Source: Pseudodesulfovibrio mercurii
Lineage (GTDB): Bacteria; Desulfobacterota; Desulfovibrionia; Desulfovibrionales; Desulfovibrionaceae
Direction: 5' to 3'
Assembly (NCBI RefSeq): GCF_000189295.2
Contig: NC_016803.1
Location: forward strand, 2,010,001-2,042,000
Length of the DNA: 32,000 nucleotides
This document shows, piece after piece, positions 3,780 to 28,846 of the stretch. Within the stretch, counting starts at the first letter, position 1. Each line of letters opens with the position of its first letter. The notes under the pieces were generated by a model. That model did not search any database. It saw only the letters and a list, made by a program, of their open reading frames with translations, and had not been told where the DNA came from. Both the position numbers and the translations under genes were made by a program.

Positions 3780-4238
3780 CTACTGGACGAGCTGCCAGGA
3801 GCCGTCGGGCTGGCGGTAGGCCTTGGCGTAGACGGTCTGTCGGGAGCCGTCGGCCATGCGGGCATGGATGGTCACGTCGCGTTCGACGCGGCCGTCGTTG
3901 TATTCGCGCGGCGGTTCGGGGATGGCCTCGTACTGGGTGCGGGTATCGGGGTTGACCCACTCGTTGGCGTAGCCCGAGGGCGTGGATTCGAGGGTATTGG
4001 CCAGGTGCGCCTGGTCGGCCTTTTCCATTTCATTGCCCACGATGTATCCGGCGAGCAGGCCCACGCCCGCGCCGATGGCCGCGCCCGAGATCTTGTTCTT
4101 GAAGGTCAGCGCGCCGAGGGTGGCCCCGGCCAGGGTGCCGATCCCGGCGGCGTTCTGGGTTTGGGTGGTCTGGCAGCCCGCCAGCAGGGTCAGCATCAGC
4201 AACAGCGACGTAGTGGTCTTGAGTAGGGCGTTCTTCAT
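3780..4238 (-). CDS. Glycine-zipper (17 kDa surface-antigen-like) lipoprotein
   Basis: I take the start at the internal ATG (comp. 4236-4238), which has AGGAGG 9 nt upstream. This gives MKNALLKTTTSLLLMLTLLAGC, a lipobox signal peptide. It is followed by the glycine-zipper segment GIGTLAGATLGALTFKNKISGAAIGAGVGLLAGYIVG. The upstream 32 codons in the track look non-coding. Confidence 0.8.
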   Translation of the reverse strand: MKNALLKTTTSLLLMLTLLAGCQTTQTQNAAGIGTLAGATLGALTFKNKISGAAIGAGVGLLAGYIVGNEMEKADQAHLANTLESTPSGYANEWVNPDTRTQYEAIPEPPREYNDGRVERDVTIHARMADGSRQTVYAKAYRQPDGSWQLVQ

Positions 4239-4312
4239 GGTTTTTTCCTCCTTGCAGCCTTGCGGGCCGTTCCTTGTTTCGGCCGCTCGGCCTTGCTCTC
4301 GATGGGAAGAGA

Positions 4313-4327
4313 GCATAGGGTGTGCCA
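4313..4327 (-). promoter_or_regulatory. Sigma54 (-24/-12) type promoter upstream of the lipoprotein gene
   Basis: The minus strand reads TGGCAC-accct-ATGCT. The GG and GC elements have the canonical TGGCAC-N5-TTGC spacing. The site is about 75 nt upstream of the ATG at 4238. Confidence 0.45.
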
Positions 4328-4362
4328 GACGCATCAGCTTGGAATAATGGAATAATTTTTAC

Positions 4363-4464: not shown

Positions 4465-5418
4465 ATGACCGGACGTGACGCGCGCATCGACAACGCCAAG
4501 GGCGTGCTCATCATCCTGGTGGTCCTGGGGCACCTGGTCTGGCCGGTGCCGAGCGGCGACCGGCCGGCGGACGGCCTGTATTTCTTCGCGTACCTGTTCC
4601 ACATGCCCATGTTCGCCCTGATTTCGGGCTGGCTGTCGCGGGTGGAGACGGGGTGGGCGGCGCTGGTCCGGAACGGACGACTGCTCCTGGCCCCGTACGT
4701 GATCTTCGTGGCGCTGCACGCGCTCATCCTGCGGCTCATGGGCCAGGAGCCCTACCCCTTTCTCCAGGGATTGTACGGGCTGTGGTACCTGCTCAGCCTG
4801 TTCTGCTGGCGCATGGTCCTGCCCTATGCGCGACGCGTGCCGCTGGCCCTGCCCTTGTCCGTCGCGCTGGCCCTGGCGGCGGGATTCGTGCCGTTCATCG
4901 GCCTGGATTTGAGCCTGTCCCGGACGTTGGTGCTGCTGCCGTTCTTCCTGGCCGGGCACCGGCTCAGGGAAAAGGGTGTCTCGCCCACGGCCGTGTTCGG
5001 CCGACTGACGGGCGGGGCGCTGGTGGCGACCGGACTGCTGCTGGCCGCATGGCTCTCCGGGTATGCTTTCCAGCCCATGCTGTACGGCAACGGGCCGTAT
5101 GCCGCCCTGGGGCCGGGGGTGGGCGTGGGATTTGCCGCCCGCGCCGTGCAGTTGGCGGCGGCCTTCGGCCTGGGACTGGGCGCGCTGGCCCTGACGCCGG
5201 GGGCCGAGAGCCCCCTGACCCGCATCGGCCGCCACTCGCTGCACGTCTACCTGCTGCACACGCTGCTGCTCGTGCCCTACCGCCTGTGGCCCGGCGCCTA
5301 CGGCGTGCTCGGCTCCAGGGCCTGGCTCCTGATACCAGCGGCCGTGCTGCTGGCCTGGCTCCTGGCCAGTCCCCCGGTGGTCAAGGTCACGCGGCGGCTG
5401 GTCGCGCCCCTGGGCTGA
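4465..5418 (+). CDS. Acyltransferase family 3 (OafA-like) membrane protein
   Basis: I take the start at ATG 4465. This gives MTGRDARIDNAKGVLIILVVLGHL.., the typical N-terminus of acyltransferase_3 proteins, followed by about 9 hydrophobic segments. The track start at 4363 is a GTG inside the palindrome. Confidence 0.75.
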   Translation: MTGRDARIDNAKGVLIILVVLGHLVWPVPSGDRPADGLYFFAYLFHMPMFALISGWLSRVETGWAALVRNGRLLLAPYVIFVALHALILRLMGQEPYPFLQGLYGLWYLLSLFCWRMVLPYARRVPLALPLSVALALAAGFVPFIGLDLSLSRTLVLLPFFLAGHRLREKGVSPTAVFGRLTGGALVATGLLLAAWLSGYAFQPMLYGNGPYAALGPGVGVGFAARAVQLAAAFGLGLGALALTPGAESPLTRIGRHSLHVYLLHTLLLVPYRLWPGAYGVLGSRAWLLIPAAVLLAWLLASPPVVKVTRRLVAPLG

Positions 5419-5434
5419 TCCTGTTTCGCCCAAC

Positions 5435-5474
5435 AAAAAAGGCCCCGGTCGTGCGACCGGGGCCTTTTCATTTT
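5435..5474. terminator. Bidirectional rho-independent terminator shared by the acyltransferase gene and ald
   Basis: AAAAAA-GGCCCCGGTC-gtgc-GACCGGGGCC-TTTTCATTTT: a 10 bp GC stem flanked by an A-run and a T-run, lying between convergent genes. Confidence 0.85.
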
Positions 5475-5490
5475 CCGTGTACCGTAAGGG

Positions 5491-6603
5491 CTACATCTGG
5501 GCCAGGGCCTCTTCCGGGGTCATGGACTCGATGTTCAGGGCCGCGCCCACGGCCGGGCAGGTCAGGTTGCCGTCCCAGGTGTTCAGGCCCAGGGCCAGGC
5601 CCGGGTCTTCCTTGAGGGCGGCCACGCCCTTGGCGGCCAGGCGCAGGGCGTAGGGAGCGGTCTGGTTGACCAGGGCGAAGGTGGAGGTGCGGGGCACCGC
5701 GCCGGGCATGTTGGCCACGCCGTAGTGGACCACGCCGTCGATGACGTAGGTCGGGTTGTCGTGGGTGGTGGCGTGGGTGGTCTCGATGCAGCCGCCCTGG
5801 TCCACGGCCACGTCGACGATGACCGCGCCTTCCTTCATCAGGGGCAGCATGTCGCGGGTGATCAGGTTCGGGGTCTTGGCGCCGGGCAGCAGGACCGCGC
5901 CGATGACCAGGTCGGCCCGCTGGACCATCTGGCGGATGTTGGGCTCGGTGGACATCATGGTGGTGATGCGGCCCTGGAAGACGTCGTCCAGGTACTGGAG
6001 GCGCTGGTGGGAAAGGTCGAGGATGGTCACGCGCGCGCCCATGCCCATGGCGATGCGGGCCGCGTTGGTGCCGACCACGCCGCCGCCCAGGACGAGCACT
6101 TCGGCGGGGTACACGCCGGGCACGCCGCCGAGCAGGATGCCGCGGCCGCCCTGGGTCTTCTCCAGGTAGTGCGCGCCCACCTGGGTGGCCATGCGGCCGG
6201 CGACCTCGGACATGGGGGTCAGCAGGGGCAGGGTGCCGTCGGCGGACTTGACGGTCTCGTAGGCCACGGAGGTGGTCCCGGCGTCGAGCAGGGCCTTGGT
6301 CAGCTCGGGAGCGGCGGCCAGGTGCAGGTAGGTGAACAGGATCATGTCCTTGCGCAGGTACTTGAACTCGCTCGGAAGCGGCTCCTTGACCTTGATGACC
6401 ATCTCGGCGGCCCAGGCCTCCTCGGCGGTGACCATCTTGGCGCCCGCGGCGGCGTATTCCTCATCGGTCAGGCCGCTGCCCAGACCGGCGCCGGCCTCGA
6501 CCAGCACCTCGTTGCCCTTGCGGACCAGGGATTCCACCGCACCGGGGGTCATGGCCACGCGGTTTTCCAACGTCTTGATTTCTTTGGGGATACCGATAAT
6601 CAT
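5491..6603 (-). CDS. ald: Alanine dehydrogenase
   Basis: 370 aa. [23 protein letters not shown]..., the NAD-binding [28 protein letters not shown] and ..[11 protein letters not shown].. are all characteristic of AlaDH. AAGGAG lies upstream. Confidence 0.95.
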
Positions 6604-7393: not shown

Positions 7394-8818
7394 TCAGACG
7401 GTCAGGGAGCCGACGAGCAGGACCGTGCCGAGCAGGCAGATGGCGGCGGCCCCGCACAGGGACAGTCCGGCGTGAAGGACGTTGAACAGGCGGCGGTTGC
7501 GGCCGGACAGGGTCAGGGCGGCCTTGCGGGCCGAGACCGCGAACCAGGCGAACAGGGTGGTGGTCAGCCCCATGCCCAGGGCCATGACCACCAGGGCGGC
7601 CAGGCCGGTCCAGAGGATGTTCAGGCCGATGGCGAAGGCCAGGATGACGGCCGCGCCCGGACAGGGGATCAGCCCGGTGACGAAGGACACGGCCAGGATG
7701 GAGCGCAGGTTTTCGCCCTCGGGTTCGGCGCGGGCGCAGGCGTCGGCCGCGAGGAGCCCGCCCCGGCGCAGGTCGAACACGGCCTTGACCAGGAGGAACA
7801 GCCCCATGAGGGCGAGGAGCCCGTACCCGGCGGGCTGGATGGCCCGGCTGGCGGCCGCGAACCCGCCCATGCCCGTGGAGAACACGAGATAGGCCGCGCC
7901 CACGGCCAGCACGGCCGAGCCCATATGCACGAAGGTGATGGCGTTGCCCATGAGCGCGCCGGTCATGAGCGATCCGGGGCGGCTCAGGAACCAGGAGCAG
8001 ACCACGGCCTTGCCGTGCCCCGGCCCCACGGCGTGGACCACCCCGTAGACGAAGGACAGCCCCAGGAACATCCACAGGGCCGGGCCCCACGGGTCGTCCG
8101 CAAGTTGGACTCCGAAGGCGTCGAGCCGCGCGGTCAGCGCCTTCTGGGCGGACCGGACCAAGCCCATAAACCGGGCGAGGAGGCCGGGCTCGTCCGTTTC
8201 CCCTTCCGCCACGGCGGGGGACGCGCCGGGGATCGCGCTCACGGACAGGTGCACGGCGTCGGGCACGATATAGCGCCAGTAGGTCTGGTCCCTGGCCGGG
8301 CGCATGGCGTGGCTGACCGCGATGCCGCCCTGGACGTCGAAGCGCACGCCGTTCTCGGCGTAGATCATGTCCGTATAATAGTCCCTGTCGAACACGGCCA
8401 TGCGGAAGTCGGCCAGCCGGTCCACGGGCAGGTCGAGGGGCACGTCGAAGTCGTAGACGAAGCGGTTGCCCTTCAGCCCGGCCCGGAAGTGCTCCACCCG
8501 GACCGGCAGCCGCTCGCCCCCGGCCTCGACCAGGGTGAAATAGTGGTAGTTGGACAGGTACTGGAAGGCCCCGTCGCGCACGGCCGCCTGGCCCTGGGGC
8601 GTGGCCAGGGAGGCCGCGTCCAGGCCCAGGTCGCTCAGGATGGCCCGGGTGAACATCTCGTCGAAGAGCCAGCTCTGGTGCACGCCCGACAGCCCGGCGT
8701 CGTCCAGGCGGAAGGTCAGGGACACGTCCACGTAGACGTGCGGGTGGGCTTCGGCCCGGTCCGGGGCCAGGGCCGGACAACACAGGCTCGCCAGGAGAAG
8801 GATGATGATCGTGCGCAT
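7394..8818 (-). CDS. Fusion protein: periplasmic DUF1007-like domain + NicO/RcnA-like nickel/cobalt transporter permease
   Basis: I take the start at the internal ATG (comp. 8816-8818), giving the signal peptide MRTIIILLLASLCCPALA. AHPHVYVDVSLTF opens a DUF1007-type domain of about 240 aa. A multi-TM domain follows, with the HAVGPGHGK and PCPGA motifs typical of COG2215 NicO-type transporters. There is one uninterrupted frame. Confidence 0.8.
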   Translation of the reverse strand: MRTIIILLLASLCCPALAPDRAEAHPHVYVDVSLTFRLDDAGLSGVHQSWLFDEMFTRAILSDLGLDAASLATPQGQAAVRDGAFQYLSNYHYFTLVEAGGERLPVRVEHFRAGLKGNRFVYDFDVPLDLPVDRLADFRMAVFDRDYYTDMIYAENGVRFDVQGGIAVSHAMRPARDQTYWRYIVPDAVHLSVSAIPGASPAVAEGETDEPGLLARFMGLVRSAQKALTARLDAFGVQLADDPWGPALWMFLGLSFVYGVVHAVGPGHGKAVVCSWFLSRPGSLMTGALMGNAITFVHMGSAVLAVGAAYLVFSTGMGGFAAASRAIQPAGYGLLALMGLFLLVKAVFDLRRGGLLAADACARAEPEGENLRSILAVSFVTGLIPCPGAAVILAFAIGLNILWTGLAALVVMALGMGLTTTLFAWFAVSARKAALTLSGRNRRLFNVLHAGLSLCGAAAICLLGTVLLVGSLTV

Positions 8819-8893
8819 GGTCGGTTCCGGCACAGATAAGGGAGAGCCGGGAAGATGGCAAGCCCGTTTCCCGGCGGAAACGCCCGCAGCACG

Positions 8894-8922
8894 TTGCTTT
8901 TTCGGGAAATGCGTTCTAAATT
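8894..8922 (+). promoter_or_regulatory. Possible sigma70 promoter placing the TSS at or next to the ATG of the SBP gene (leaderless candidate)
   Basis: TTGCTT (8894-8899), a 17 nt spacer, TAAATT (8917-8922), then gcgcc and ATG at 8928. No Shine-Dalgarno sequence is visible. Confidence 0.3.
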
Positions 8923-11799: not shown

Positions 11800-11977
11800 C
11801 ACAGCTACACCACTCTCGACAAATCCGCAGGACAGCGGATTTGGACGTTGCGGTCTTTCCGCAACGCCCCGAAGGGGTGAGCCCCAGGACGGGGCGAATC
11901 AAAGCCTAGTGCGCGCACGGGAGAGAGAGCCGCTGTCGGGTGCTGCGCACCCGAATCGCTCCAAAGAGGTAAGACAG

Positions 11978-12015
11978 GGCCTTCGACTCTATGTTGAGTC
12001 GGAGGCCTTTTTGTT
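11978..12015 (+). terminator. Strong rho-independent terminator with no obvious upstream gene
   Basis: GGCCTTCGACTC-tatgtt-GAGTCGGAGGCC forms a 12 bp stem with one G.U pair, followed by TTTTTGTT. The nearest upstream plus-strand CDS ends 270 nt earlier. Confidence 0.7.
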
Positions 12016-12219
12016 GGGGGTGCCCACCCCGCGAAGCTGCGACAAAAAGCTTGAAGGGGGTCCAGGGGGCATCCCCGCATCCTGTCAAGTTGCTTTTTTA
12101 TGCTTATCGGGCGCTTTTGGGCGTCATTCTTCAACAAAACAGGGTGTTGGCGAAAACCGGGGGTATGCTGGTTCGGATTCCCGGGGATGGGCCTCGGGGA
12201 CGAAGCCAGAGAGGTTGCC

Positions 12220-13590
12220 ATGGCAGCACCGTATATGTGTGAGACGAGGCGCGGCCCGGACGGGCGCATTGTGGAGAAAACCGAGACCGTCAGGGGGCGG
12301 AAGTCCGTCTGGGCCTACGCCTATGACGGGGACGGACGGCTGACCGAGGCCAAACTGGACGGGCGGGTCATCTGCCAGTGCTGGTACGACCGGGAGGGCC
12401 GCCGGGTGCGGGACTATCTGCCCGCCACGGCCGGGGCGAATTATCGGGATTACCAGTATACTCAGGACAACCGGCTGATGCGCGCCGGGTCCGGGCAGTA
12501 TTCCCACGACGAGCGCGGCTTCCGGTCCATCTGGTCGGACAGGGGCGTGTACACCCTGTACGAGTACAGCCCGGACTACCGGCTGCTCAAGGCCGAGGAG
12601 GAGGGCCGGAACAAGGCCTTGACCTTTGACCACGACGATGACGGGCGGCGCTCGGCCAAGTACCTGAACGGGCAGTTGGTCGAGGCCTACCGGTGGCTCG
12701 ACTTCGTGCGTCTGGCCGCGTTCCACGACGGGCGGCACGGTTACGAGTTCGCCTACCGCGAGGGCGAGCGCACGCCCTACGCCATGCGCCGGGACGACGG
12801 GACCGTGGCCGGGCTCTTATATGACCAGGTCGGCTCCCTGCGCGTGGTTGCCGACGTGGACGGAAACGTGATAAAGGAGGTCCTGTACGATCCCTTCGGC
12901 GGGATCATCGAGGACACCAACCCGAGCCTGCGCCTGCCCATCGGCTTCGCGGGCGGCCTCCACGACCGGGACCTGGGGTTCGTCCGCTTCGGCTGGCGCG
13001 ACTATGACGTCAGGACCGGCCGCTGGACCGCGCCCGACCCCATCGGGGACAAGGGCGGCGACCCGGACTGGTACGGGTATTGTCTGGACGACCCGGTGAA
13101 CATGCATGACCCCATGGGGTTGTTTGCTTGGATCCCGCTGGCAGGAGCCGCGATTGGTGCAGGCTCCAATGCCTATGACAATTGGGATGATTGGAGAAGC
13201 GGCAAGATGAGCACAGGCGACTATGCCACATCCGTTGGCCTGGGAGCTGTAACCGGCGCAGTGAGCACCATGGGCGGGGGTATAGGTTCAACCCTTCTGC
13301 TTGGTGGCGGCTCTGCCGCCTTGAACGAAGTTGGGAACCAGTACATCAGGACAGGCAAAGTCGATGATGTTGGGAAAGTTGCTGCAGCTGCTGGGAGCGG
13401 AGTAATCGGAGGGGCTGCCGGGAAGATCGGCAAGAGCGTCGGAAAGAACTTCGGCAGGATTACACCTTCCATGACGATCCCCCCCAAACCCCTCAAGGAT
13501 GCGAGCAATCTTGGAAGTGTTGTGAGTTCAACTGTCGGCACGGAGATGACTGACGACTGGCTCAACAAGGCTTTGGACAAGCAAAAATAA
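12220..13590 (+). CDS. Short Rhs/YD-repeat protein: YD repeats + RHS core tip (DPxGL) + glycine-zipper C-terminal (toxin-like) domain
   Basis: I take the start at ATG 12220, with GAGAGG 5 nt upstream. YD repeats are YAYDGDGRLTEA, WYDREGRRV, YQYTQDNRLMRA and FDHDDDGRRSAK. The core tip is GFAGGLHDRDLGFVRFGWRDYDVRTGRWTAPDPIGDKGGDPDWYGYCLDDPVNMHDPMGL and ends at 13122. The tail 13123-13587 is rich in GxxxG (GAAIGAG, GLGAVTGAVSTMGGGIGSTLLLGGG, GSGVIGGAAGKIG). Confidence 0.85.
   Translation: MAAPYMCETRRGPDGRIVEKTETVRGRKSVWAYAYDGDGRLTEAKLDGRVICQCWYDREGRRVRDYLPATAGANYRDYQYTQDNRLMRAGSGQYSHDERGFRSIWSDRGVYTLYEYSPDYRLLKAEEEGRNKALTFDHDDDGRRSAKYLNGQLVEAYRWLDFVRLAAFHDGRHGYEFAYREGERTPYAMRRDDGTVAGLLYDQVGSLRVVADVDGNVIKEVLYDPFGGIIEDTNPSLRLPIGFAGGLHDRDLGFVRFGWRDYDVRTGRWTAPDPIGDKGGDPDWYGYCLDDPVNMHDPMGLFAWIPLAGAAIGAGSNAYDNWDDWRSGKMSTGDYATSVGLGAVTGAVSTMGGGIGSTLLLGGGSAALNEVGNQYIRTGKVDDVGKVAAAAGSGVIGGAAGKIGKSVGKNFGRITPSMTIPPKPLKDASNLGSVVSSTVGTEMTDDWLNKALDKQK
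12912..13101 (+). repeat. Core-tip direct repeat, copy 1 (inside the main Rhs gene)
   Basis: 190 bp, roughly 96 percent identical by eye to 13902-14091. Its distal 162 bp match 14771-14932. Confidence 0.9.
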
Positions 13591-13598
13591 GGAAAGTG

Positions 13599-13826
13599 AT
13601 GTTAGGCATTGTCTTCATGTTTGTTGCAGGTGCAGTATGCATCATTGGCGGGTTATTTTTGATCCGAGAATGGTACTATACCCGGCATACAGACCTTCGC
13701 CCATTTTCATGGAAACGTTGGTTCAACAGAGATGAAGGGCTGAACCCCCTTGAAAAGCTTGTCAACGGAATAATAGGTATAATCATTGGTGCATTTGCGA
13801 CGTTGATCTTCCTGTCTTCCTTGTAG
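13599..13826 (+). CDS. Small 2-TM membrane protein, putative immunity protein for the preceding C-terminal domain
   Basis: 75 aa (ATG 13599; a GTG lies at 13596), starting 9 nt after the Rhs stop. TM1 is GIVFMFVAGAVCIIGGLFLI and TM2 is LVNGIIGIIIGAFATLIFLSSL. G+C is markedly lower than the surroundings. The function is inferred from position only. Confidence 0.55.
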   Translation: MLGIVFMFVAGAVCIIGGLFLIREWYYTRHTDLRPFSWKRWFNRDEGLNPLEKLVNGIIGIIIGAFATLIFLSSL

Positions 13827-13836
13827 ACTCACCGAT

Positions 13837-13874
13837 ACGCCCGAGGAAAAAGCCTCGGGCGTGTTTGATTTGTT
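13837..13874 (+). terminator. Rho-independent terminator closing cassette 1
   Basis: ACGCCCGAGG-aaaaag-CCTCGGGCGT followed by GTTTGATTTGTT. Confidence 0.7.
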
Positions 13875-14520
13875 GTGGCGAGTGTCGGGCGGAATTTTAG
13901 CGGACACCAACCCGAGCCTGCGCCTGCCCCTCGGCTTTGCGGGCGGCCTGCACGACCGGGACCTGGGCTTCGTCCGCTTCGGCTGGCGCGACTATGACGT
14001 CAGGACCGGCCGCTGGACCGCGCCCGACCCTATCGGCGACAAGGGCGGCGACCCGGACTGGTACGGGTATTGTCTGGACGACCCGGTGAACGGGGTTGAT
14101 CCGGCGGGGTTGGAAGGCGGGTTTTGGGATGGGGTCAAGAAAATCGGAGCGGGCTTCGGCAAGCTGTGGGACAAGGCCCCGGCCGGTATCGGTGAGGCCG
14201 TTACCAAGGGCGTGAAGGGGGCTGGCAAGGCATTGAGCAAAACGGCGGACGCCTTTGCCACCAACAAGGATTTGCAAAAATATACGGCGATCGCCTTAGG
14301 TGCGGGGGCTCTCCCCATCGTGGCGGCGACAGGCTCGGCAGTGGTGCCGGCGGCCATCGGAGCCGCCATGCAGCACCCGGACACGCTCGCAACCATGTCA
14401 AAAGCGACTGTCGATTTTGCGAATGGATACTTCGACGAAGGCCCGCCGCCGCCTTCCTGGCCCGGCTATCTCGGAGGGCTACTCGGAAAAGCGAAAGATA
14501 TCCACAAGAAAAAGAAGTGA
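13861..14520 (+). CDS. Orphan Rhs core-tip fragment fused to alternative C-terminal domain (CT2); probably not independently translated
   Basis: The frame reads ..DTNPSLRLPLGFAGGLHDRDLGFVRFGWRDYDVRTGRWTAPDPIGDKGGDPDWYGYCLDDPVNGVDPAGL, then a 135-aa Gly/Ala/Lys-rich tail (14113-14517) with the hydrophobic stretch YTAIALGAGALPIVAATGSAVVPAAIGAAM. The only start is GTG 13861, which lies inside the T-tract of the preceding terminator and has no RBS. Confidence 0.7.
   Translation: MFDLLWRVSGGILADTNPSLRLPLGFAGGLHDRDLGFVRFGWRDYDVRTGRWTAPDPIGDKGGDPDWYGYCLDDPVNGVDPAGLEGGFWDGVKKIGAGFGKLWDKAPAGIGEAVTKGVKGAGKALSKTADAFATNKDLQKYTAIALGAGALPIVAATGSAVVPAAIGAAMQHPDTLATMSKATVDFANGYFDEGPPPPSWPGYLGGLLGKAKDIHKKKK
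13902..14091 (+). repeat. Core-tip direct repeat, copy 2
   Basis: It aligns base for base with 12912-13101 at an offset of 990, with about 7 mismatches. Confidence 0.9.
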
Positions 14521-14522
14521 TT

Positions 14523-14720
14523 ATGAGAGTAAAACCGGTGGAAATGGTGCTGAGTGCCGCGATGATAGTAACAAGCCTGCTGAGCATAACGAATGATTAT
14601 TCCTACTTTAAGGGATTTCCCGTATACTCCTGGGTTGAATACATTATTCTGGGGGGAGGTGTGTTGATCCCCGTCCTGGCTTGGTTCCTCCGGTCACCAA
14701 CTCGGAATAAACAAAAATAA
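14523..14720 (+). CDS. Small 2-TM membrane protein, putative immunity protein for CT2
   Basis: 65 aa from ATG 14523, 2 nt after the CT2 stop (the track uses GTG 14517). It reads MRVKPVEMVLSAAMIVTSLLSI...WVEYIILGGGVLIPVLAWFLRSP. It is a paralogue of the ORF at 15352-15555, sharing the MRVK start and the P.LAW(F/Y)LR.P motif. Confidence 0.55.
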   Translation: MRVKPVEMVLSAAMIVTSLLSITNDYSYFKGFPVYSWVEYIILGGGVLIPVLAWFLRSPTRNKQK

Positions 14721-14726
14721 CGGTAG

Positions 14727-14764
14727 GAAACGCCCTGGGAACCATATTTCCAGGGCGTTTCTTC
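14727..14764 (+). terminator. Stem-loop / weak terminator closing cassette 2
   Basis: GAAACGCCCTGG-gaaccatattt-CCAGGGCGTTTC forms a 12 bp stem followed by TTC. The T-tract is only partial. Confidence 0.5.
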
Positions 14765-14770
14765 ACCCCT

Positions 14771-14932
14771 ATCGGCTTCGCGGGCGGCCTGCACGACCGG
14801 GACCTGGGCTTCGTCCGCTTCGGCTGGCGGGATTACGACGTCAGGACCGGCAAATGGTCCGCGCCGGACCCCATCGGGGACAAGGGCGGCGACCCGGACT
14901 GGTACGGGTATTGTCTGGACGACCCGGTGAAC
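14771..14932 (+). repeat. Core-tip direct repeat, copy 3 (5'-shortened)
   Basis: 162 bp matching 12940-13101 and 13930-14091. Similarity to cassette 2 continues to 15222 (cassette 2 coordinate 14381). Confidence 0.9.
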
Positions 14933-15355
14933 GGGGTTGATCCGGCGGGGTTGGAAGGCGGATTTTGGGATGGCGTGAAGAAAATCGAAGCGGGCTTCGG
15001 CAAGCTGTGGGACAAGGCCCCGGCCGGTATCGGTGAGGCCGTTACCAAGGGCGTGAAGGGGGCTGGCAAGGCATTGAGCAAAACGGCGGACGCCTTTGCC
15101 ACCAACAAGGATTTGCAAAAATATACGGCGATCGCCTTAGGTGCGGGGGCTCTCCCCATCGTGGCGGCGACAGGCTCGGCAGTGGTGCCGGCGGCCATCG
15201 GAGCCGCCATGCAGCATCCGGAAAGATTGGCTGTCGCGTCCAAGGCGGCAACTGATTTTGCAACCGGAGCGTTCGACCCAGGGCCTCCGCCGATGACCAA
15301 GGCGGGTATAGCCGGATACGCCGTGAACAAGGCCTATGAGTGGAGTAAACAATGA
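14771..15355 (+). CDS. Second orphan Rhs core-tip fragment fused to CT3 (chimeric relative of CT2); no start codon upstream of the homology
   Basis: The frame is open from 14711 with no ATG or GTG before IGFAGGLHDRDLGFVRFGWRDYDVRTGKWSAPDPIGDKGGDPDWYGYCLDDPVNGVDPAGL. The tail is 14954-15352. The track's start at 14927 is the Val codon of DPVNG. Confidence 0.7.
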   Translation: MGFAGGLHDRDLGFVRFGWRDYDVRTGKWSAPDPIGDKGGDPDWYGYCLDDPVNGVDPAGLEGGFWDGVKKIEAGFGKLWDKAPAGIGEAVTKGVKGAGKALSKTADAFATNKDLQKYTAIALGAGALPIVAATGSAVVPAAIGAAMQHPERLAVASKAATDFATGAFDPGPPPMTKAGIAGYAVNKAYEWSKQ

Positions 15356-15555
15356 GAGTGAAATTGTCTGAAATTCTGTTGGGGGAATTGCTTGTCGGAG
15401 TCGGTGCGTTGGAAATAGGCGCAGGCAAGGCTGGTGTATATGGCTACCCCCAACCCTTGTGGACGGCCTATCTCCTTGTCGCCATCGGCGTCGCACTCCC
15501 TTTGGTTGCTTGGTATTTGCGGCGGCCGCAGAAAGATGAGGACCAGACGGTTTAA
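15352..15555 (+). CDS. Small 2-TM membrane protein, putative immunity protein for CT3
   Basis: 67 aa. Its ATG overlaps the CT3 stop (ATGA). It reads MRVKLSEILLGELLVGVGALEIGAG...LWTAYLLVAIGVALPLVAWYLRRP. Confidence 0.55.
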   Translation: MRVKLSEILLGELLVGVGALEIGAGKAGVYGYPQPLWTAYLLVAIGVALPLVAWYLRRPQKDEDQTV

Positions 15556-15700: not shown

Positions 15701-17167
15701 CTACTCGTCGTATTCGTACTCGATGTCGATGTGGATGGTCTTTTCGTAGCGCTTTTCCAGGTCCGCGAGGATGCCGCGCTTGTTGTTCAGCAGGTAGATG
15801 GCCAGTTCCTCCTCGCAGTCGTACTGGACCTCGTCGGAGCCGGGCTTGCGCAGGTCGCGGTGGATGTCCTTGAGGGCCTGGAGGGCCTGCCATTCCATGT
15901 TCCGGCGGATGCCCGTGCCCTTGCAGCAGGGGCAGGGCTCGGTGGAGATGGCGATGGCCGAGGAGCCCAGCCGCTGGCGGACCAGCTCCATGAGCCCGAA
16001 GGAGGAGATGCGCGAGACGTCGGTCCGGGCGCGGTCGTTCTTCATTTCCGCGCGCATGACCTTCTCCACCTCGCGGCAGTCCTTGGGGTTCTTCATCTCG
16101 ATGAAGTCGATGACCACCTGGCCGCCGATGTCGCGCAGCCGCAGCTGGCGGGCGATCTCGCGGGCGGCCTCCACGTTGGTCTTGAGCGCCATCTTCTGGA
16201 AATTCTTCTCGCCGCCGATCTTGCCGGAGTTGATGTCCACGGCGGTCAGGGCCTCGGTGGCGTCGAAGACCAGCCGCCCGCCCGAGGGCATGGACGCCTC
16301 GCGGGAGTAGATCTCCTCCACCTGCTTGACCAGGTTGAACCGCTCCAGCAGGGACAGCTCGTTGTCCTCGTGCAGCCGGACCAGGTTGTTCTTGCGCGGG
16401 AAGGCCAGCTTGACGAACTGGTGGACCTGCTCATAGGTCTCCTTGTCGTCCACCCAGATCTCGGTGATGTCCAGGGTCAGGTAGTCGCGCACGGCCCGGG
16501 CGGCCAGGCCGAGCTCCTGGTAGACCGGCGCCGGGGCCTTGACCTTCTGGGCGTTGGCCCGGATGTCGGTCCACAGCCGGTTCAGGTACTTGAAGTCGCG
16601 CTCCAGGGCGGCCTTGGACTGGCCCACGGCCGCGGTGCGGGCGATGAGCCCCACGCCCTCGGCGGTCTCGAACCCCTCCAGGGCGGTCTTGAGGCGATCC
16701 CGCTCCTTCTCGTCCTCGATCTTGCGCGAGACCCCGATCTGGCTGCGGCCCACGGTGTAGACGAAGCAGCGGCCGGGCAGGGAGAGGTAGGAGGTCAGGA
16801 ACGCGCCCTTCTTGCCTGTGGGTTCCTTGACCACCTGGACCAGGACCTCCTGGCCGGGCTTGAGCACCTTCTGCATGAGCGGGAAGCGCTGGCCCTTCTT
16901 GGTGGGCACCTCGTTGATGTAGTATTCGGGGTGGACCTCGTCGATCTGCAGAAAGCCGTTGCGCTCGGCCCCGTAGTTGATGAACGCGGCCTGCAACCCG
17001 TTGTCGATGTTGTGGATGTAGCCCTTGTAGATGTTGCCCTTGGTCTTGGCCTGGTGGACCATCTCAACGTAATACTCGTTGACCTTGCCCTCCTCGGCGA
17101 TGACGACCTCGACCTGTTCTCCCGGCAGCACGGAGATGAACATCTTCTGCCGTTTCTTCTTGGTCAT
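15701..17167 (-). CDS. rng: Ribonuclease G (RNase E/G family)
   Basis: I take the start at the internal ATG (comp. 17165-17167), giving MTKKKRQKMFISVLPGEQVEVVIAEEG... The S1 domain is GNIYKGYIHNIDNGLQAAFINYGAERNGFL and the catalytic region is ..AVDINSGK...IGGQVVIDFIEM... At 488 aa it fits Rng rather than Rne. Confidence 0.9.
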   Translation of the reverse strand: MTKKKRQKMFISVLPGEQVEVVIAEEGKVNEYYVEMVHQAKTKGNIYKGYIHNIDNGLQAAFINYGAERNGFLQIDEVHPEYYINEVPTKKGQRFPLMQKVLKPGQEVLVQVVKEPTGKKGAFLTSYLSLPGRCFVYTVGRSQIGVSRKIEDEKERDRLKTALEGFETAEGVGLIARTAAVGQSKAALERDFKYLNRLWTDIRANAQKVKAPAPVYQELGLAARAVRDYLTLDITEIWVDDKETYEQVHQFVKLAFPRKNNLVRLHEDNELSLLERFNLVKQVEEIYSREASMPSGGRLVFDATEALTAVDINSGKIGGEKNFQKMALKTNVEAAREIARQLRLRDIGGQVVIDFIEMKNPKDCREVEKVMRAEMKNDRARTDVSRISSFGLMELVRQRLGSSAIAISTEPCPCCKGTGIRRNMEWQALQALKDIHRDLRKPGSDEVQYDCEEELAIYLLNNKRGILADLEKRYEKTIHIDIEYEYDE

Positions 17168-17213
17168 GGAAACCTCTTGACGAGAAATGTGTGCGTCTGA
17201 TCCCGGCGCGCCC

Positions 17214-18167
17214 TCAGTCTTCGATGACATGGCCCGTTCCGTGGTAAAATGTCTCCCCCCGGTCATCCCGGCGGGTCACTTCGCCCATTTTTTCGAGGGC
17301 TTCCACGGCCTGGCGAACCCTCTCGAGGTCCGCGCCCAGGGCCTGGGCCAGCTGTTCGGCGGTCTGGGGCCTGCGGCTCAGGGAGGCGGTCACGGCAGCG
17401 GTCATCCGCTCCAGGCTCATCTCCTTGCCCGCATGGGCCCGCCGCCCGTCCGGGCGGGTCTCCCCGCCTCCGAGCGCCAGGCGCCAACGGCTTAAAACCT
17501 CCCCGTCCACGGGGCGGACCCCCTTGACCGTGCCGGGACGGGTCAGCGTGACCACGTCCACCCGGTCGGGGGCAAGCCGTTGGCAGAAAATCCGTAGCCT
17601 GCCGAGGTTCTCGTCGGAATCGTTAATTCCTTCGGCAAGCAAAATTTCCAAAAATATCTTTCCCTTGAATTCATTCCTGAAGGCAAGGAGCCCGTCGGCC
17701 ACGGCCTCGGGCGTGATGGCCTCGTCCGGCCGGTTCACCCTGGTGAATTCCTCGGGCACCAGGGAGTCCATGCTGGGCAGGACCACGTCGGCGGCGCACA
17801 GTTCGCGCCGCACCTCGGGGTCGGTCATCAGGCTGGCGTTGGTCAGCACGGCCACGGGGATCCCCGGAAAGAGCGCCTTGGCCCCGAGGATGATCCGCTC
17901 CATGTCCGCGTTCAGGCACGGTTCGCCCAGGCCGCCGAGGGTGATCATGTCCGGCGGCTCCAGCCCTTCCTCCTTCCACTGGGACAGTTCCCGGAGGATG
18001 TCGGCCGCCGGAACGTAGACCCTGCGCTCGCAGGTCCGGTTCCTGGTGGCGCCCACCTCGCAGTAGACGCAGTCCATGGAACAGATGCGGTCGCCGAGCA
18101 GGTCGAGTCCGAGGGAGCGGCCGAGCCGCCCGCTCATGACCGGGCCGAAGACGTATTTGTATGCCAT
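17214..18167 (-). CDS. Radical SAM protein with C-terminal winged-helix-like domain
   Basis: The start is taken at MAYKYVFGPVMSGRLGRSLG. CSMDCVYC is the CX3CX2C cluster motif. The tail is ..TAEQLAQALGADLERVRQAVEALEKMGEV. The longer track start at 18260 is possible but has no better signal. Confidence 0.8.
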   Translation of the reverse strand: MAYKYVFGPVMSGRLGRSLGLDLLGDRICSMDCVYCEVGATRNRTCERRVYVPAADILRELSQWKEEGLEPPDMITLGGLGEPCLNADMERIILGAKALFPGIPVAVLTNASLMTDPEVRRELCAADVVLPSMDSLVPEEFTRVNRPDEAITPEAVADGLLAFRNEFKGKIFLEILLAEGINDSDENLGRLRIFCQRLAPDRVDVVTLTRPGTVKGVRPVDGEVLSRWRLALGGGETRPDGRRAHAGKEMSLERMTAAVTASLSRRPQTAEQLAQALGADLERVRQAVEALEKMGEVTRRDDRGETFYHGTGHVIED

Positions 18168-24912: not shown

Positions 24913-25959
24913 ATGAATGCTCTTTACTCACTTCTGTTCGTCTTTCTCCTGGTGTTGATCCCGTTGTTCGGGGTTGATGCGGCACACATGAGGACTTTCT
25001 TCGGTGTCTGCATCCCGACGACGGCGTTCATCATCTTCGTTCTCGGCTTTATTTATAAAGTCGTCACCTGGGGCCGGAGCGCCGTGCCGTTCCGCATCCC
25101 CACAACCGGCGGCCAGTTCCAATCCTTCGATCCCGAGCTGTTCAAGCAGAACAAGCTGGACTGTCCCCAGACCGGAGCCCAGACCTTCTTCCGCATGGTC
25201 CTGGAGATTTTCGCCTTCCGCTCCCTGTTCAGGAACACCTCCGTGTCCCTGTACGAAGGCAAGGACTACCCCGTGGTGGCCTACAAATCGAGCAAGTGGC
25301 TGTGGCTCTTCGCCATCACCTTCCACTACTCCTTTTTCATCATCGCCCTGCGGCACCTGCGCCTGTTCCTCGAACCGATCCCGTTCCTCCCGGTGGGCGC
25401 GCTCGAGTTCGTGGACGGCATCCTGCAAATCGGCGCTCCGGTCATGTACCTGAGCGACCTCGGCCTGGTGGCGGGCGTGCTCCTGCTCCTGAGCCGCAGG
25501 CTGATCCTCCCCAGGATCAACTACATCTCCTACGTCTCGGACTACTTCCCGCTGTTCCTGATCCTGTCCATCGCCCTGTCGGGCATCTACATGCGCTACT
25601 ACGCCAAGGTCGATGTCATCGCGATCAAGGAGCTGACCATGGGATTGGTGACGTTCCACTACGTCGTCCCCGAGGCCATCACCGTGTCCTTCTTCATCCA
25701 CGTCTTCCTGGTCAGCGTGCTCATGATCTACTTCCCGTTCAGCAAGCTCATGCACATGCCGGGCGTGTTCCTGTCCCCGACGAGAAACCTGCCGAACGAC
25801 TCGCGCGCCAAGCACCACGTGAACCCCTGGAACGATCCGAACATCAAGGCCCATCCCTACGCGGAATACGAAGAGGAGTTCGGCGTGCCCATGGCCGAGG
25901 CCGGCCTGCCGCTGGACAATCCCGCAAACGGCGTCCCGCACGACGAGACCAAGGCCTAG
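24913..25959 (+). CDS. dsrM: DsrM, NarI-like dihaem b membrane subunit of the DsrMKJOP complex
   Basis: 348 aa polytopic protein, first gene of a five-gene cluster in the canonical MKJOP order. GAGGTG lies upstream. Confidence 0.92.
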   Translation: MNALYSLLFVFLLVLIPLFGVDAAHMRTFFGVCIPTTAFIIFVLGFIYKVVTWGRSAVPFRIPTTGGQFQSFDPELFKQNKLDCPQTGAQTFFRMVLEIFAFRSLFRNTSVSLYEGKDYPVVAYKSSKWLWLFAITFHYSFFIIALRHLRLFLEPIPFLPVGALEFVDGILQIGAPVMYLSDLGLVAGVLLLLSRRLILPRINYISYVSDYFPLFLILSIALSGIYMRYYAKVDVIAIKELTMGLVTFHYVVPEAITVSFFIHVFLVSVLMIYFPFSKLMHMPGVFLSPTRNLPNDSRAKHHVNPWNDPNIKAHPYAEYEEEFGVPMAEAGLPLDNPANGVPHDETKA

Positions 25960-26004
25960 GGTTCACCGCCCGGTGATACTTTCTTTATCCGAGGAGATAA
26001 GAAT

Positions 26005-27675
26005 ATGTCCGTCATTCCCAAAGCAGACGAGCTCTTCAAGAGCATAGATTACAATCCGCCGCTGACCGGCTGGATGGAAACCCCGGTGGACTTCTCGCCC
26101 GGCCATTGGTGCTACCCCGCCAAGCCCGAGAAGATCGCCTACATGGACAAGGAGCTGCCCGGCCTGTGGGGCGAGCCGCGCCAGTGGCTGCCCTCCGACG
26201 CCGACTGGAAGCTGCCCCCGAACTGGAAGGAGACCGTGGTCAACGGCTTCCGCGAGCGGCTCAAGAAGTTCCGCACCCTGCAGCTGTTCATGGACATCTG
26301 CGTGCGCTGCGGCGCCTGCGCCGACAAGTGCCACTACTTCATCGGCTCCGGCGATCCCAAGAACATGCCCGTGCTGCGCGCCGAACTGATGCGTTCGGTC
26401 TATCGCGGCGAGTTCACCCTGGCCGGCAAGATCATGAGCAAGTTCACCGGCTCGCGGGTCATGGAGGAGCACGTCCTGAAGGAGTGGTTCATCTACTTCT
26501 ACCAGTGCACCCAGTGCCGCCGCTGCTCCCTGTTCTGCCCCTACGGCATCGACACCGCCGAGATGACCATGATGGCCAGGGAGCTCATGCACCTGGTCGG
26601 CCTGAACACCAACTGGATCATGGAGCCGGTCTCCAACTGCAACATCACCGGCAACCACCTCGGCATCCAGCCCCACGCCTTCAAGGACATCGTGGACTTC
26701 ATGGTCGACGACATCGAGGAGGTCACCGGCCGGAGGGTCAAGGCGCCCCTGAACGAGAAGGGCCATGAGATCCTGTTCATCACCCCGTCGGGCGACGTGT
26801 TCGCCGACCCGGGCATCTACACCTTCATGGGCTACCTGCTCCTGTTCGACTACCTCGACCTGGACTACACCCTGTCCACCTACGCCTCCGAGGGCGGCAA
26901 CTTCGGCTCGTTCACCAACAACGAGGTCATGAAGAAGCTCAACGCCAAGATGTACGCCGAGGCCGAACGCCTGGGCTGCAAATGGATCCTCGGCGGCGAG
27001 TGCGGCCACATGTGGCGCGTGGTGCACCAGTACATGGACACCATGAACGGCGACAACCAGTGGTCCGGCATGACCACCCCGAAGTCGCCCATCACCGGCA
27101 CGGTCTTCAACAACGCCGCGGCCACCAAGATGCTGCACATCACCGAGTTCACGGCCGACCTGATCAAGCACAACAAGCTGAAGCTCGACCCGAGCCGCAA
27201 CGATCACCTGCGCGTGACCTTCCACGACTCCTGCAACCCGGCCCGCGGCATGGGCCTGCTCGAGGAGCCGCGCTACGTGCTCAAGCACGTGTGCAACAAC
27301 TTCTTCGAGATGCCCCCGGCGACCATCCGCGAGCAGACCTTCTGCTGTGCGGGCGGCTCCGGCCTGAACACCGACGAGATCATGGAAATCCGCCTGCGCG
27401 GCGGCCTGCCCCGCGGCAACGCCCTGCGCTACGTGCAGGAAAAGCACGGCGTCAACCTGATGGCCTGCATCTGCGCCATCGACCGGGCGACCCTGATCCC
27501 GCTGGCCGATTACTGGGCTCCCGGCGTGACCATCGCAGGCACCCACGAGCTGGTCGCCAACGCCCTGGTCCTCGAAGAGGGCGAGGTCCGCACCATGGAC
27601 ATGCGCCAGGAACCCCTCCCCGGCTTCGAGGACGAAGAAGACGACTGGACGCCCCCGACCAAGGAGGATGCATAA
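26005..27675 (+). CDS. dsrK: DsrK, HdrD-like iron-sulfur catalytic subunit
   Basis: CVRCGACADKCHY and CTQCRRCSLFCPY are ferredoxin-type motifs. The CCG domain signature is FCCAGGSG. GAGGAG RBS. Confidence 0.95.
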   Translation: MSVIPKADELFKSIDYNPPLTGWMETPVDFSPGHWCYPAKPEKIAYMDKELPGLWGEPRQWLPSDADWKLPPNWKETVVNGFRERLKKFRTLQLFMDICVRCGACADKCHYFIGSGDPKNMPVLRAELMRSVYRGEFTLAGKIMSKFTGSRVMEEHVLKEWFIYFYQCTQCRRCSLFCPYGIDTAEMTMMARELMHLVGLNTNWIMEPVSNCNITGNHLGIQPHAFKDIVDFMVDDIEEVTGRRVKAPLNEKGHEILFITPSGDVFADPGIYTFMGYLLLFDYLDLDYTLSTYASEGGNFGSFTNNEVMKKLNAKMYAEAERLGCKWILGGECGHMWRVVHQYMDTMNGDNQWSGMTTPKSPITGTVFNNAAATKMLHITEFTADLIKHNKLKLDPSRNDHLRVTFHDSCNPARGMGLLEEPRYVLKHVCNNFFEMPPATIREQTFCCAGGSGLNTDEIMEIRLRGGLPRGNALRYVQEKHGVNLMACICAIDRATLIPLADYWAPGVTIAGTHELVANALVLEEGEVRTMDMRQEPLPGFEDEEDDWTPPTKEDA

Positions 27676-28062
27676 ATGAAAATGTACAATGGATTTGCGA
27701 TCGTCGCAGGGCTGGTCATCTTCTTCGCCATGCTGACCGCGCCGTTTGCGCTCGGGACCATGACCAAGCAGTACAAGGAGCCCGAGCTCAAGCTGCCCAA
27801 GGGCGAGAAGGAGTGCGTCGAGGCCACCGAATGGATGCGCAACAATCACATGCAGCTCCTGAACGAGTGGCGCGACTGGGCCCTGCGTGACGGCAAGAGG
27901 ACCTACACCAACCACGCTGGCAAGGAGTTCACCATCTCCCTGCAGAACACCTGCATGAAGTGCCACAACAGCAAGGCCGACTTCTGCGACAAGTGTCACA
28001 ACGACGCGGGTGTCTCTCCCTATTGCTGGGATTGCCACGTTCAGCCGGAGGGTTTGAAATAA
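27676..28062 (+). CDS. dsrJ: DsrJ, periplasmic trihaem cytochrome c
   Basis: 128 aa with an N-terminal membrane anchor and exactly three CXXCH motifs (CMKCH, CDKCH, CWDCH). The start directly abuts the dsrK stop (TAAATG). Confidence 0.95.
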   Translation: MKMYNGFAIVAGLVIFFAMLTAPFALGTMTKQYKEPELKLPKGEKECVEATEWMRNNHMQLLNEWRDWALRDGKRTYTNHAGKEFTISLQNTCMKCHNSKADFCDKCHNDAGVSPYCWDCHVQPEGLK

Positions 28063-28835: not shown

Positions 28836-28846
28836 GAGGAATCGGA

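Follow-up and report, generated by a model that had tools for sequence, protein, structure and literature searches.

The locus and its two-gene unit

Our analysis concerns a window of 32,000 nucleotides (nt), the whole stretch of Pseudodesulfovibrio mercurii DNA under study, and within it an Rhs gene whose C-terminal (CT) tail, here termed CT1, is followed by a small open reading frame (ORF). The 32-kb window is a chromosome segment of 65% GC, and a lower-GC insert lies between a gene for a PAS kinase, which ends at 11704, and the gene for RNase G (15704-17275, minus strand). The first gene of this insert is an Rhs ORF (12100-13590, plus strand) that carries CT1 as its tail. From the evidence assembled below, we consider it highly probable that positions 12220-13826 constitute a two-gene polymorphic toxin/immunity cassette. 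The features of this unit and its flanks are as follows, with protein lengths in amino acids (aa) and TM denoting transmembrane:

11976..12019 (+): terminator-like hairpin, 14-bp stem with 8 GC pairs, then a T-run; beyond the 3' end of the gene for the PAS histidine kinase
12050..12219 (+): leader conserved 5' of the mini-Rhs coding region, with a repeated TCCCGGGGA-like element and the ribosome-binding site
12220..13122 (+): mini-Rhs carrier (YD-repeat shell of ~300 aa, Rhs-associated core; PF25023, TIGR03696), ending in DPMGL
13123..13590 (+): predicted C-terminal toxin domain CT1, 155 aa and stop (composition, family alignment A3, AlphaFold2)
13599..13826 (+): two-TM hairpin of 75 aa, candidate cognate immunity protein (hydropathy, alignment A2, linkage to CT1)
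13834..13875 (+): terminator-like hairpin, 13-bp stem with 8 GC pairs, then TGATTTGTTG; before the first orphan module

As predicted from sequence, the first hairpin would mark the left boundary of the toxin unit and the second would close the bicistronic unit, such that the two appear to bracket the mini-Rhs/CT1 gene and the 75-aa ORF. The start codon of the small ORF, ATG 13599, is preceded by an AGGAA ribosome-binding site and is separated from the CT1 stop by 8 nt. A sequence-only reading of this DNA had singled out the small ORF as the most AT-rich in the window, and indeed the lowest-GC 228-nt stretch of the entire 32 kb (13583-13810; 42.1% GC, compared to 64.9% on average, z = -3.6) falls on it. 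GC content at third codon positions (GC3) is 0.87 for the Rhs core but only 0.59 for CT1 and 0.50 for the small ORF, and this abrupt fall at the DPMGL junction is typical of swapped CT/immunity cassettes.

The carrier is a mini-Rhs protein of ~340 aa. The 12100-13590 ORF matches the TEN_YD-shell profile PF25023 (E = 1.3e-20) at profile positions 624-866 of 909 only and the Rhs_assc_core profile TIGR03696 (E = 6.2e-18) at aa 263-341, and its Rhs core motif of the PxxxxDPxGL type, DPMGL, occupies aa 337-341 (nt 13108-13122), directly 5' of the variable tail. The true start of the gene is likely ATG 12220 and not the ATG 12100 of the listed ORF, because the start position and the ribosome-binding site are conserved in relatives (P. 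cashew and locus L007). Counted from ATG 12220, the protein has ~320 shell residues. Nothing lies N-terminal of the partial shell match, and neither a full YD-repeat shell nor an N-terminal delivery domain is present in the window protein. At this length, the mini-Rhs cannot by itself enclose a toxin in an Rhs cocoon.

The leader of ~170 nt aligns upstream of mini-Rhs genes in three species, including P. cashew (L001) and the source of L007, there with two tandem copies in the alignment (A4). Its sequence features are GTCAAG...TTATGC and, immediately 5' of the ribosome-binding site, a TCCCGGGGA-like element that is present twice. The leader may be a promoter/operator or an RNA element. An Rfam search of the locus and the leader returned no family match and nothing meaningful. 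Genes of the mini-Rhs type, of which one genome can have several in tandem, were located at the following sites:

Window: 12220-13122
L001: 8115-9377
L007: ~3204, ~7420, and ~9380
L009: ~2479
L013: 8771-10004

In L007, at least three mini-Rhs genes are arranged in tandem with the same leader before each, and the two copies with readable tails differ in that tail. One further protein, P0016, combines such a mini-Rhs with an additional domain at its N-terminus, and YD-shell genes of 400-420 aa that resemble the mini-Rhs are likewise found in the Rhs arrays of unrelated contigs, where they would count as orphans. Because the start, the ribosome-binding site, and the leader are conserved across species in different neighborhoods, and because the leader is repeated before tandem L007 copies with different tails, the mini-Rhs looks like a maintained gene type and not debris. 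The protein may be exported, may depend on a partner shell, or may act as a recombination reservoir in Pseudodesulfovibrio.

The second mini-Rhs of the L007 metagenome-assembled genome (~7420-8900) has a tail with YGNWGGKNYSGG...YKRHDLAY, which is reminiscent of a phospholipase-A2-type motif.

CT1 and its predicted membrane partner

The coding part of CT1 spans 13123-13587, with the stop codon at 13588-13590. These 155 aa after DPMGL had been described as rich in Gly motifs and devoid of catalytic-looking Cys/His motifs and of recognizable nuclease or deaminase signatures, and our analyses agree with both statements. Gly accounts for 28 of the 155 residues (18.1%), Ala for 19 (12%), and Ser for 14 (9%), and the domain has no Cys and no His. 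When glycine-zipper motifs are defined as (G/A/S)xxxGxxxG or GxxxGxxx(G/S/T), CT1 contains six of them (3.9 per 100 aa), compared to a mean of 0.34 per 100 aa in 21 other proteins of the window. An unrelated 192-aa protein (3783-4358, minus strand) ranks second by zipper density among the proteins of the window; it is a true match to Pfam glycine-zipper models (PF13488, E = 5e-9; PF13441) and provides an internal contrast to CT1.

In an alignment of 25 family members sharing 25-68% identity (A3), Gly occupies the majority of conserved columns, and many of these are spaced i/i+4. The conserved sets are G8/G12, G41/G45, G93/G97, G103/G107, and G131/G135/G139, with four positions being invariant; N68 and Q73 are also conserved, as are the further polar positions N16 and N20. 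Zipper motifs were detected in all 25 aligned members (4-12 each). Since Gly columns at i/i+4 are conserved across the 25-member alignment, the glycine-zipper motif appears to be real in evolutionary terms.

Searches of CT1 against Pfam, NCBIfam, the PDB (by profile), and the PDB again with Foldseek identified no enzymatic signature, and neither CT1, the small ORF, nor the 25 family members yielded anything above threshold in Pfam or NCBIfam. The Pfam glycine-zipper families PF13488, PF13441, and PF13436 did not match CT1, and a single one of the 25 family members touches PF13488 (E = 0.067). AlphaFold2 modeling with a broad family alignment predicted five helices at residues 3-26, 31-50, 54-77, 83-110, and 128-154, with a mean predicted local distance difference test (pLDDT) of 68. 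Local confidence varied among parts of the model, with a pLDDT of 80-94 for helices 1-2, 54-77 for helices 3-4, and <50 for the Pro-rich linker at 114-131; a model built with close homologs only was uninformative (pLDDT 42). Foldseek comparison of the CT1 model to the PDB identified no fold at E < 1. Judged from its sequence, CT1 looks amphipathic and Gly-rich rather than plainly hydrophobic.

The small ORF was likewise correctly recognized by the earlier reading as two TM helices joined by a basic/aromatic loop. Kyte-Doolittle means over 19 residues reach 2.81 (residues 4-22) and 2.2 (residues 55-73), and the 33-residue loop between the predicted helices contains 7 K/R and many aromatics. Homologs of the 75-aa protein were found only in Pseudodesulfovibrio and Desulfovibrio. 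Their alignment (A2) shows a nearly invariant loop, TRHTDLRPFSWKRWFNxDEGLNPxEKLxNG, and TM helices that vary; the second TM segment has a small-residue face (G57/G60/G64/A67). This loop should be cytoplasmic by the positive-inside rule, since it carries 7 K/R.

Small membrane proteins also accompany distant members of the CT1 family. Family genes in L003-L006 are followed directly 3' by a 94-aa ORF that seems by eye to have three TM helices, whereas those in L010 and L011 (the full-length carriers P0051 and P0059) are followed by a 74-aa two-TM ORF with a basic loop. When the 75-aa family was compared by hhalign to these 74-aa proteins, no significant match emerged, and the distant partners show no detectable homology to the small ORF of the window. 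A small two- or three-TM ORF lies directly 3' of the toxin gene at every locus examined. These observations suggest that the architecture of the partner is conserved while its sequence is polymorphic across the CT1 family.

The combination of an invariant immunity loop and variable TM helices suggests a specific protein-protein interface, and this raises the alternative that CT1 is a membrane toxin that does not form a pore but blocks or hijacks a specific membrane protein or lipid-linked precursor, with the small TM protein competing for the same interface. The conserved polar residues N16, N20, N68, and Q73 and the modest hydrophobicity of CT1 would suit such a mode of action, as would the observation that the ionophores of contact-dependent inhibition (CDI) systems need membrane-protein receptors, namely AcrB, SecY, YciB, PuuP/PlaP, or DtpA/B (PMC11630599). 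We nevertheless consider this alternative quite unlikely. The dominant conserved feature of CT1 is Gly at i/i+4 on every helix, a hallmark of self-packing in channel-forming glycine-zipper proteins; all of the experimentally studied toxins with this layout that are cited here depolarize cells (PMC9637101, PMC11630599, PMC12744356); and no particular target is indicated by the data. CT1 is probably a membrane-depolarizing pore former.

The CT1 family, its carriers, and its linkage to the predicted membrane partner

A word-indexed search with CT1 recovered only six close homologs, all of them short and all from Pseudodesulfovibrio or Desulfovibrio. A HMMER profile search of 1.84 billion cluster representatives recovered 193 proteins at E <= 1e-3, of which 45 reached E <= 1e-10, and a hidden Markov model (HMM) of the CT domain only matched ~100 of the best 150 proteins from that profile search, a family size that counts representatives at the 50% clustering level. 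Where upstream sequence exists, the CT1-family domain almost always directly follows an Rhs core tail ending in DPxG. CT1 therefore represents a large, unnamed, Rhs-specific sequence family without a Pfam or NCBIfam model. The suggestion that it might be a new sequence family holds as far as those curated databases are concerned, but the family is not a small one. A tblastn search of 72,556 plasmids with two family members returned no match. The protein P0075, which had appeared to contain tandem CT1 repeats, was rejected as a low-complexity false positive.

Most family matches (69 of 101) are shorter than 300 aa and are orphan-like or partial, while 11 carriers exceed 1000 aa; full-length Rhs/teneurin-like carriers span 1100-2600 aa. 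Five long carriers were examined (P0015, P0051, P0059, P0080, and P0083), with P0046 falling outside the Pfam scan. DUF6531 and a transglutaminase-like domain occur in the Rhs proteins P0015 and P0051, and P0059 has the same domains plus RHS repeats. P0080 is a Bacteroidota-style DUF6443/CHU_C protein carrying a CT1-family tail, and P0083 is a teneurin-like carrier with TTR, FN-plug, NHL, and YD-shell domains. By eye, the N-termini of P0015 and P0059 look like signal peptides. A full shell with an N-terminal delivery domain is a feature encountered in these five distant carriers, none of which has a PAAR or VgrG domain. A look-up of their clusters yielded hardly any taxonomic information.

Loci related to the pair in the window were collected by searching with the alignment of the 75-aa (immunity) family. 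The CT1/75-aa pair is co-inherited in eight Pseudodesulfovibrio/Desulfovibrio loci, six with an intact toxin and two with a toxin remnant. In the six intact cases (the window, L001 of P. cashew, L002, L008, L012, and L013 of P. piezophilus), the 75-aa ORF directly follows CT1, and its start often overlaps the CT1 stop codon. The pair is situated on a mini-Rhs in the window, L008, and L013 and in an orphan module in L001, L002, and L012; its occurrence in either the first or an orphan position of the array indicates that it moves as a cassette. In L007 (4807-5219), only the last ~50-55 aa of CT1 are left, adjoining an intact 75-aa ORF. In L009 (4303-5222), the final ~50 aa of CT1 continue in frame from a duplicated Rhs fragment, the zipper helices having been deleted, and the neighboring 75-aa ORF is again intact. 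An intact small ORF beside a decayed toxin is the pattern that would be expected of a protective immunity gene.

Pairwise ratios of nonsynonymous to synonymous substitution rates (dN/dS) were 0.06-0.25 for CT1 and 0.12-0.34 for the small ORF in most informative pairs, with a value of 0.95 in one near-identical pair. Both genes are therefore real and under purifying selection. Together with co-inheritance, this fits the class to which the pair had been assigned from sequence, namely a membrane-acting glycine-zipper effector with a small membrane immunity protein, and the computable evidence is consistent with that assignment. The counter-evidence that we looked for, an enzymatic profile or fold for CT1 or a small ORF devoid of TM helices, was not encountered.

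The same loci bear on whether the cassette is a relic, in which the mini-Rhs is never exported and the small membrane protein is kept as acquired immunity against the toxin of neighbors. The retention of the immunity gene in L007 and L009 after decay of the toxin would be in keeping with this, as would the partial shell and the lack of a PAAR domain or signal peptide in the window carrier, the many short, orphan-like or partial family matches, and the mini-Rhs of P. piezophilus (L013), which is apparently split over two ORFs. Furthermore, no genes of a type VI secretion system (T6SS) or other secretion system are present in the window or within +/-10 kb of L001, L002, L007, L012, and L013. Nonetheless, the toxin frame is intact in six loci and CT1 evolves under the low dN/dS noted above; the start, ribosome-binding site, and leader of the mini-Rhs are kept in several species with differing neighborhoods; the recurrence of the leader before the tandem L007 genes argues for a maintained gene type; and P0016 is a mini-Rhs of this type that bears an additional N-terminal domain. 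On balance, a relic appears unlikely.

It is very improbable that the tail is no toxin at all but an Rhs membrane anchor or translocation module, comparable to the entry glycine zipper of Tde1, with an unrelated small ORF downstream. CT1 follows the DPxGL cleavage motif, the usual place of an Rhs toxin, and no further cargo domain follows it; the tail and the small ORF move jointly between first and orphan positions; and the small ORF behaves like an immunity gene in that it varies between family members and is retained alone.

Two additional modules follow the toxin/immunity unit within the insert:

13861-14520 and 14517-14720: orphan Rhs module 1, with a core tail, a new C-terminal domain (CT2), and a 67-aa hydrophobic ORF
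~14711-15355 and 15352-15555: orphan Rhs module 2, with a core tail, a new C-terminal domain (CT3), and a 67-aa hydrophobic ORF

CT2 and CT3 differ by a single substitution over the first ~98 residues after DPAGL, a stretch rich in Ala, Gly, and Lys, and then diverge. Each has a different 67-aa ORF with hydrophobic stretches that resemble two TM helices by eye; if both are two-TM proteins, a small membrane partner would accompany each of the three toxins of the array. In Rfam, only sub-threshold noise was obtained for the final ~45 nt of the 14517-14720 ORF together with the spacer behind it.

Comparable arrays were observed elsewhere. In L006, an orphan toxin of a different Gly-rich type (4869-5523; 138 aa, LIAGGLLGGAFGGAFGYFG...) is paired with a hydrophobic ORF of 78 aa and lies just 5' of a CT1-family orphan. 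It is preceded by a 1430-aa gene, cut off by the end of the contig, which is presumably the main Rhs gene of that array. An array with transposase fragments lies downstream of the full-length CT1-family Rhs P0051 in L010 (12400-17327). It contains another Gly/Ala-rich orphan of 230 aa, accompanied by a two-TM ORF of 74 aa; a 72-aa fragment matching only the C-terminal end of the CT1 family; and a 402-aa mini-Rhs-like gene together with two paralogous 84-aa two-TM ORFs.

The gene content of the remainder of the window resembles that of a Pseudodesulfovibrio-type sulfate reducer and includes HtpG, alanine dehydrogenase, PAS histidine kinases, RNase G, and DsrMKJOP. The operon at 24913-30070, with DsrMKJOP-like domains (nitrate-reductase-gamma-like, 4Fe-4S proteins, and NrfD), is consistent with a sulfate-reducing host. 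The closest relatives of the locus proteins are all from Pseudodesulfovibrio or Desulfovibrio.

Proposed mode of action and comparison with known systems

The explanation that best accounts for these observations, and one that we judge reasonably likely to be correct, is that the unit would encode an Rhs-borne, membrane-inserting, depolarizing toxin and its cognate membrane immunity protein. We favor depolarization because three characterized systems share the same layout of a helical, zipper-rich tail, a tiny membrane partner, and polymorphism. Under this model, cleavage after the Rhs autoproteolysis motif DPMGL would release CT1 as an all-helical domain rich in Gly, Ala, and Ser, which would partition into the cytoplasmic membrane of a target bacterium and self-associate or oligomerize via its conserved GxxxG small-residue faces. 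The oligomer would constitute an ion-conducting pore or leak, and the membrane potential would be dissipated as a result. In the producer, the 75-aa hairpin in the inner membrane would neutralize CT1 within the membrane, either by packing the small-residue face of its second TM helix (G57/G60/G64/A67) against the zipper helices of the toxin or by binding the acidic/aromatic NAYDNWDDW segment of CT1 through the invariant basic/aromatic loop (RPFSWKRWF). NAYDNWDDW is conserved in CT1, and the two segments are complementary in charge and character; that they touch one another is a guess. In general, we infer toxicity, membrane insertion, pore formation, direct contact of toxin and immunity protein, and the route of delivery.

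Several observations weigh against this model. The number of zipper motifs in CT1 is only marginally higher than in shuffles of its own composition (6 versus 2.5 +/- 1.7, p = 0.055), and the plain GxxxG motif yields p = 0.17 in the same comparison, such that the zipper count within the single CT1 sequence is mostly a by-product of its richness in Gly, Ala, and Ser. No segment of CT1 attains the hydropathy of a classical TM helix (maximum 19-residue Kyte-Doolittle mean, KD19 = 1.27). The predicted template modeling score (pTM) of 0.40 renders the five-helix packing in the AlphaFold2 model unreliable. The CT1 profile has no significant similarity to any PDB chain, Tim22 matching only at chance level (E = 0.26), and this extends to the Tse5-CT toxin discussed below: the profile of A3 gave E = 3.9 against chain 8cp6_C in hmmsearch, and hhalign of A3 against Tse5-CT residues 10-137 gave a probability of 5.8%. 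A shared 'C-x-x-I/L-N/D-W/F-K-x-V-G' stretch was considered as a sign of homology to Tse5-CT and was rejected on the basis of that same hhalign probability.

Delivery is a further difficulty. The carrier corresponds to about one third of an Rhs shell and has neither a PAAR domain nor a signal peptide; secretion genes are missing from the window and from the flanks of the five related loci named above; and a literature search for a T6SS in Pseudodesulfovibrio gave no result. Given the truncated-looking carrier and the absence of secretion genes nearby, the contact-dependent delivery of CT1 that the sequence-only reading had envisaged, and hence its use as a weapon, is no more than putative. The mini-Rhs carrier is in fact a more unusual element than CT1, and it raises the question of how much of the Rhs shell a toxin needs. 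If the mini-Rhs is deployed, this would represent an undescribed way of holding or releasing Rhs toxins, perhaps with a separate shell partner as in TcB/TcC or through lysis or vesicles.

The depolarizing, ion-selective effectors Tse4/Tsi4 and Ssp6/Sip6, with which CT1 had been compared from the outset, resemble the CT1 pair, by published description, in that small membrane proteins confer immunity to them (PMC11630599). They belong to the appropriate depolarizing class but fit less well than Tse5-CT/Tsi5 and the CDI ionophores, as Tse4 and Ssp6 are stand-alone T6SS cargo effectors and not Rhs tails. Moreover, the AlphaFold2 model of Tse4 described by Halvorsen et al. is a beta-barrel similar to Ntox25 and not a helical zipper (PMC11630599). 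Among type VII secretion system (T7SS) substrates, EsxX and TelE are glycine-zipper depolarizing toxins (PMC12744356), and EsxX, TelE, and TspA have, as is proposed for CT1, a C-terminal glycine-zipper depolarizing domain and a polytopic membrane immunity protein that acts against attack from outside (PMC12744356). Unlike CT1, these three are LXG/T7SS substrates of Firmicutes, and EsxX also needs the soluble cytoplasmic immunity pair ExiAB, for which no such gene is present at the CT1 locus.

The CDI ionophores are predicted five-helix bundles with a glycine zipper, and their 72-100-aa hairpin CdiI immunity proteins contact helices 1, 4, and 5 (PMC11630599). Compared by published description with these toxins (CdiA-CT EC93 family, groups 1-6), CT1 likewise has five predicted helices, in a model of unreliable packing, and a conserved zipper and forms a polymorphic cassette family, and its partner, like CdiI, is predicted to be a small, polymorphic two-helix hairpin; CdiI proteins are toxin-specific (PMC11630599). 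The CDI ionophores differ in being carried by CdiA after VENN and in having an extra N-terminal entry domain, whereas CT1 is a single domain of ~155 aa that starts right after DPMGL on an Rhs carrier. Furthermore, the termini of CdiI are predicted to be cytoplasmic, while the K/R in the loop of the 75-aa protein suggest the opposite topology.

A close counterpart is Tse5-CT/Tsi5 of Pseudomonas aeruginosa (RhsP1; PA2684/PA2683). Tse5-CT comprises 149 aa on an Rhs protein, depolarizes cells, forms pores in bilayers, and is neutralized by the two-TM inner-membrane protein Tsi5 (PMC9637101). CT1 similarly makes up the final ~150 aa of an Rhs protein, behind the core motif (155 aa, compared to 149 aa in Tse5-CT), is predicted to be helical with TM/amphipathic helices, and has no enzymatic signature; its candidate immunity protein, like Tsi5, is small with two predicted TM helices (Kyte-Doolittle). 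The carriers are dissimilar, since the N-terminus of Tse5 is PAAR-like, its shell is complete (Pro48-Leu1168), and the protein rides VgrG4 of the H1-T6SS (PMC9637101). The toxins also appear to differ in composition, with the aligned part of the second half of Tse5-CT looking Ala/Lys-rich by eye and CT1 being Gly-zipper-rich.

These comparisons indicate that the CT1 family is new to curated databases while its functional kind is already known. The most far-reaching formulation, that CT1 is a large, Rhs-specific family of five-helix glycine-zipper ionophores that is independent of Tse5-CT and the CDI ionophores and is deployed in Pseudodesulfovibrio by a self-contained mini-Rhs type, is doubtful as a whole and is offered tentatively. 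Polymorphic-toxin warfare has, to our knowledge, hardly been studied in the sulfate-reducing Desulfovibrionaceae, to which the present findings would extend it. The three to four or more unrelated small-TM immunity solutions in the family would provide a natural data set on how glycine-zipper pores are neutralized. Tse5 is the only Rhs-borne membrane-depolarizing toxin that our literature searches identified; if the proposed function is correct, CT1 would be the second such family, apparently unrelated to the first, comprising ~100 clusters at 50% identity and including full-length Rhs/teneurin-like proteins.

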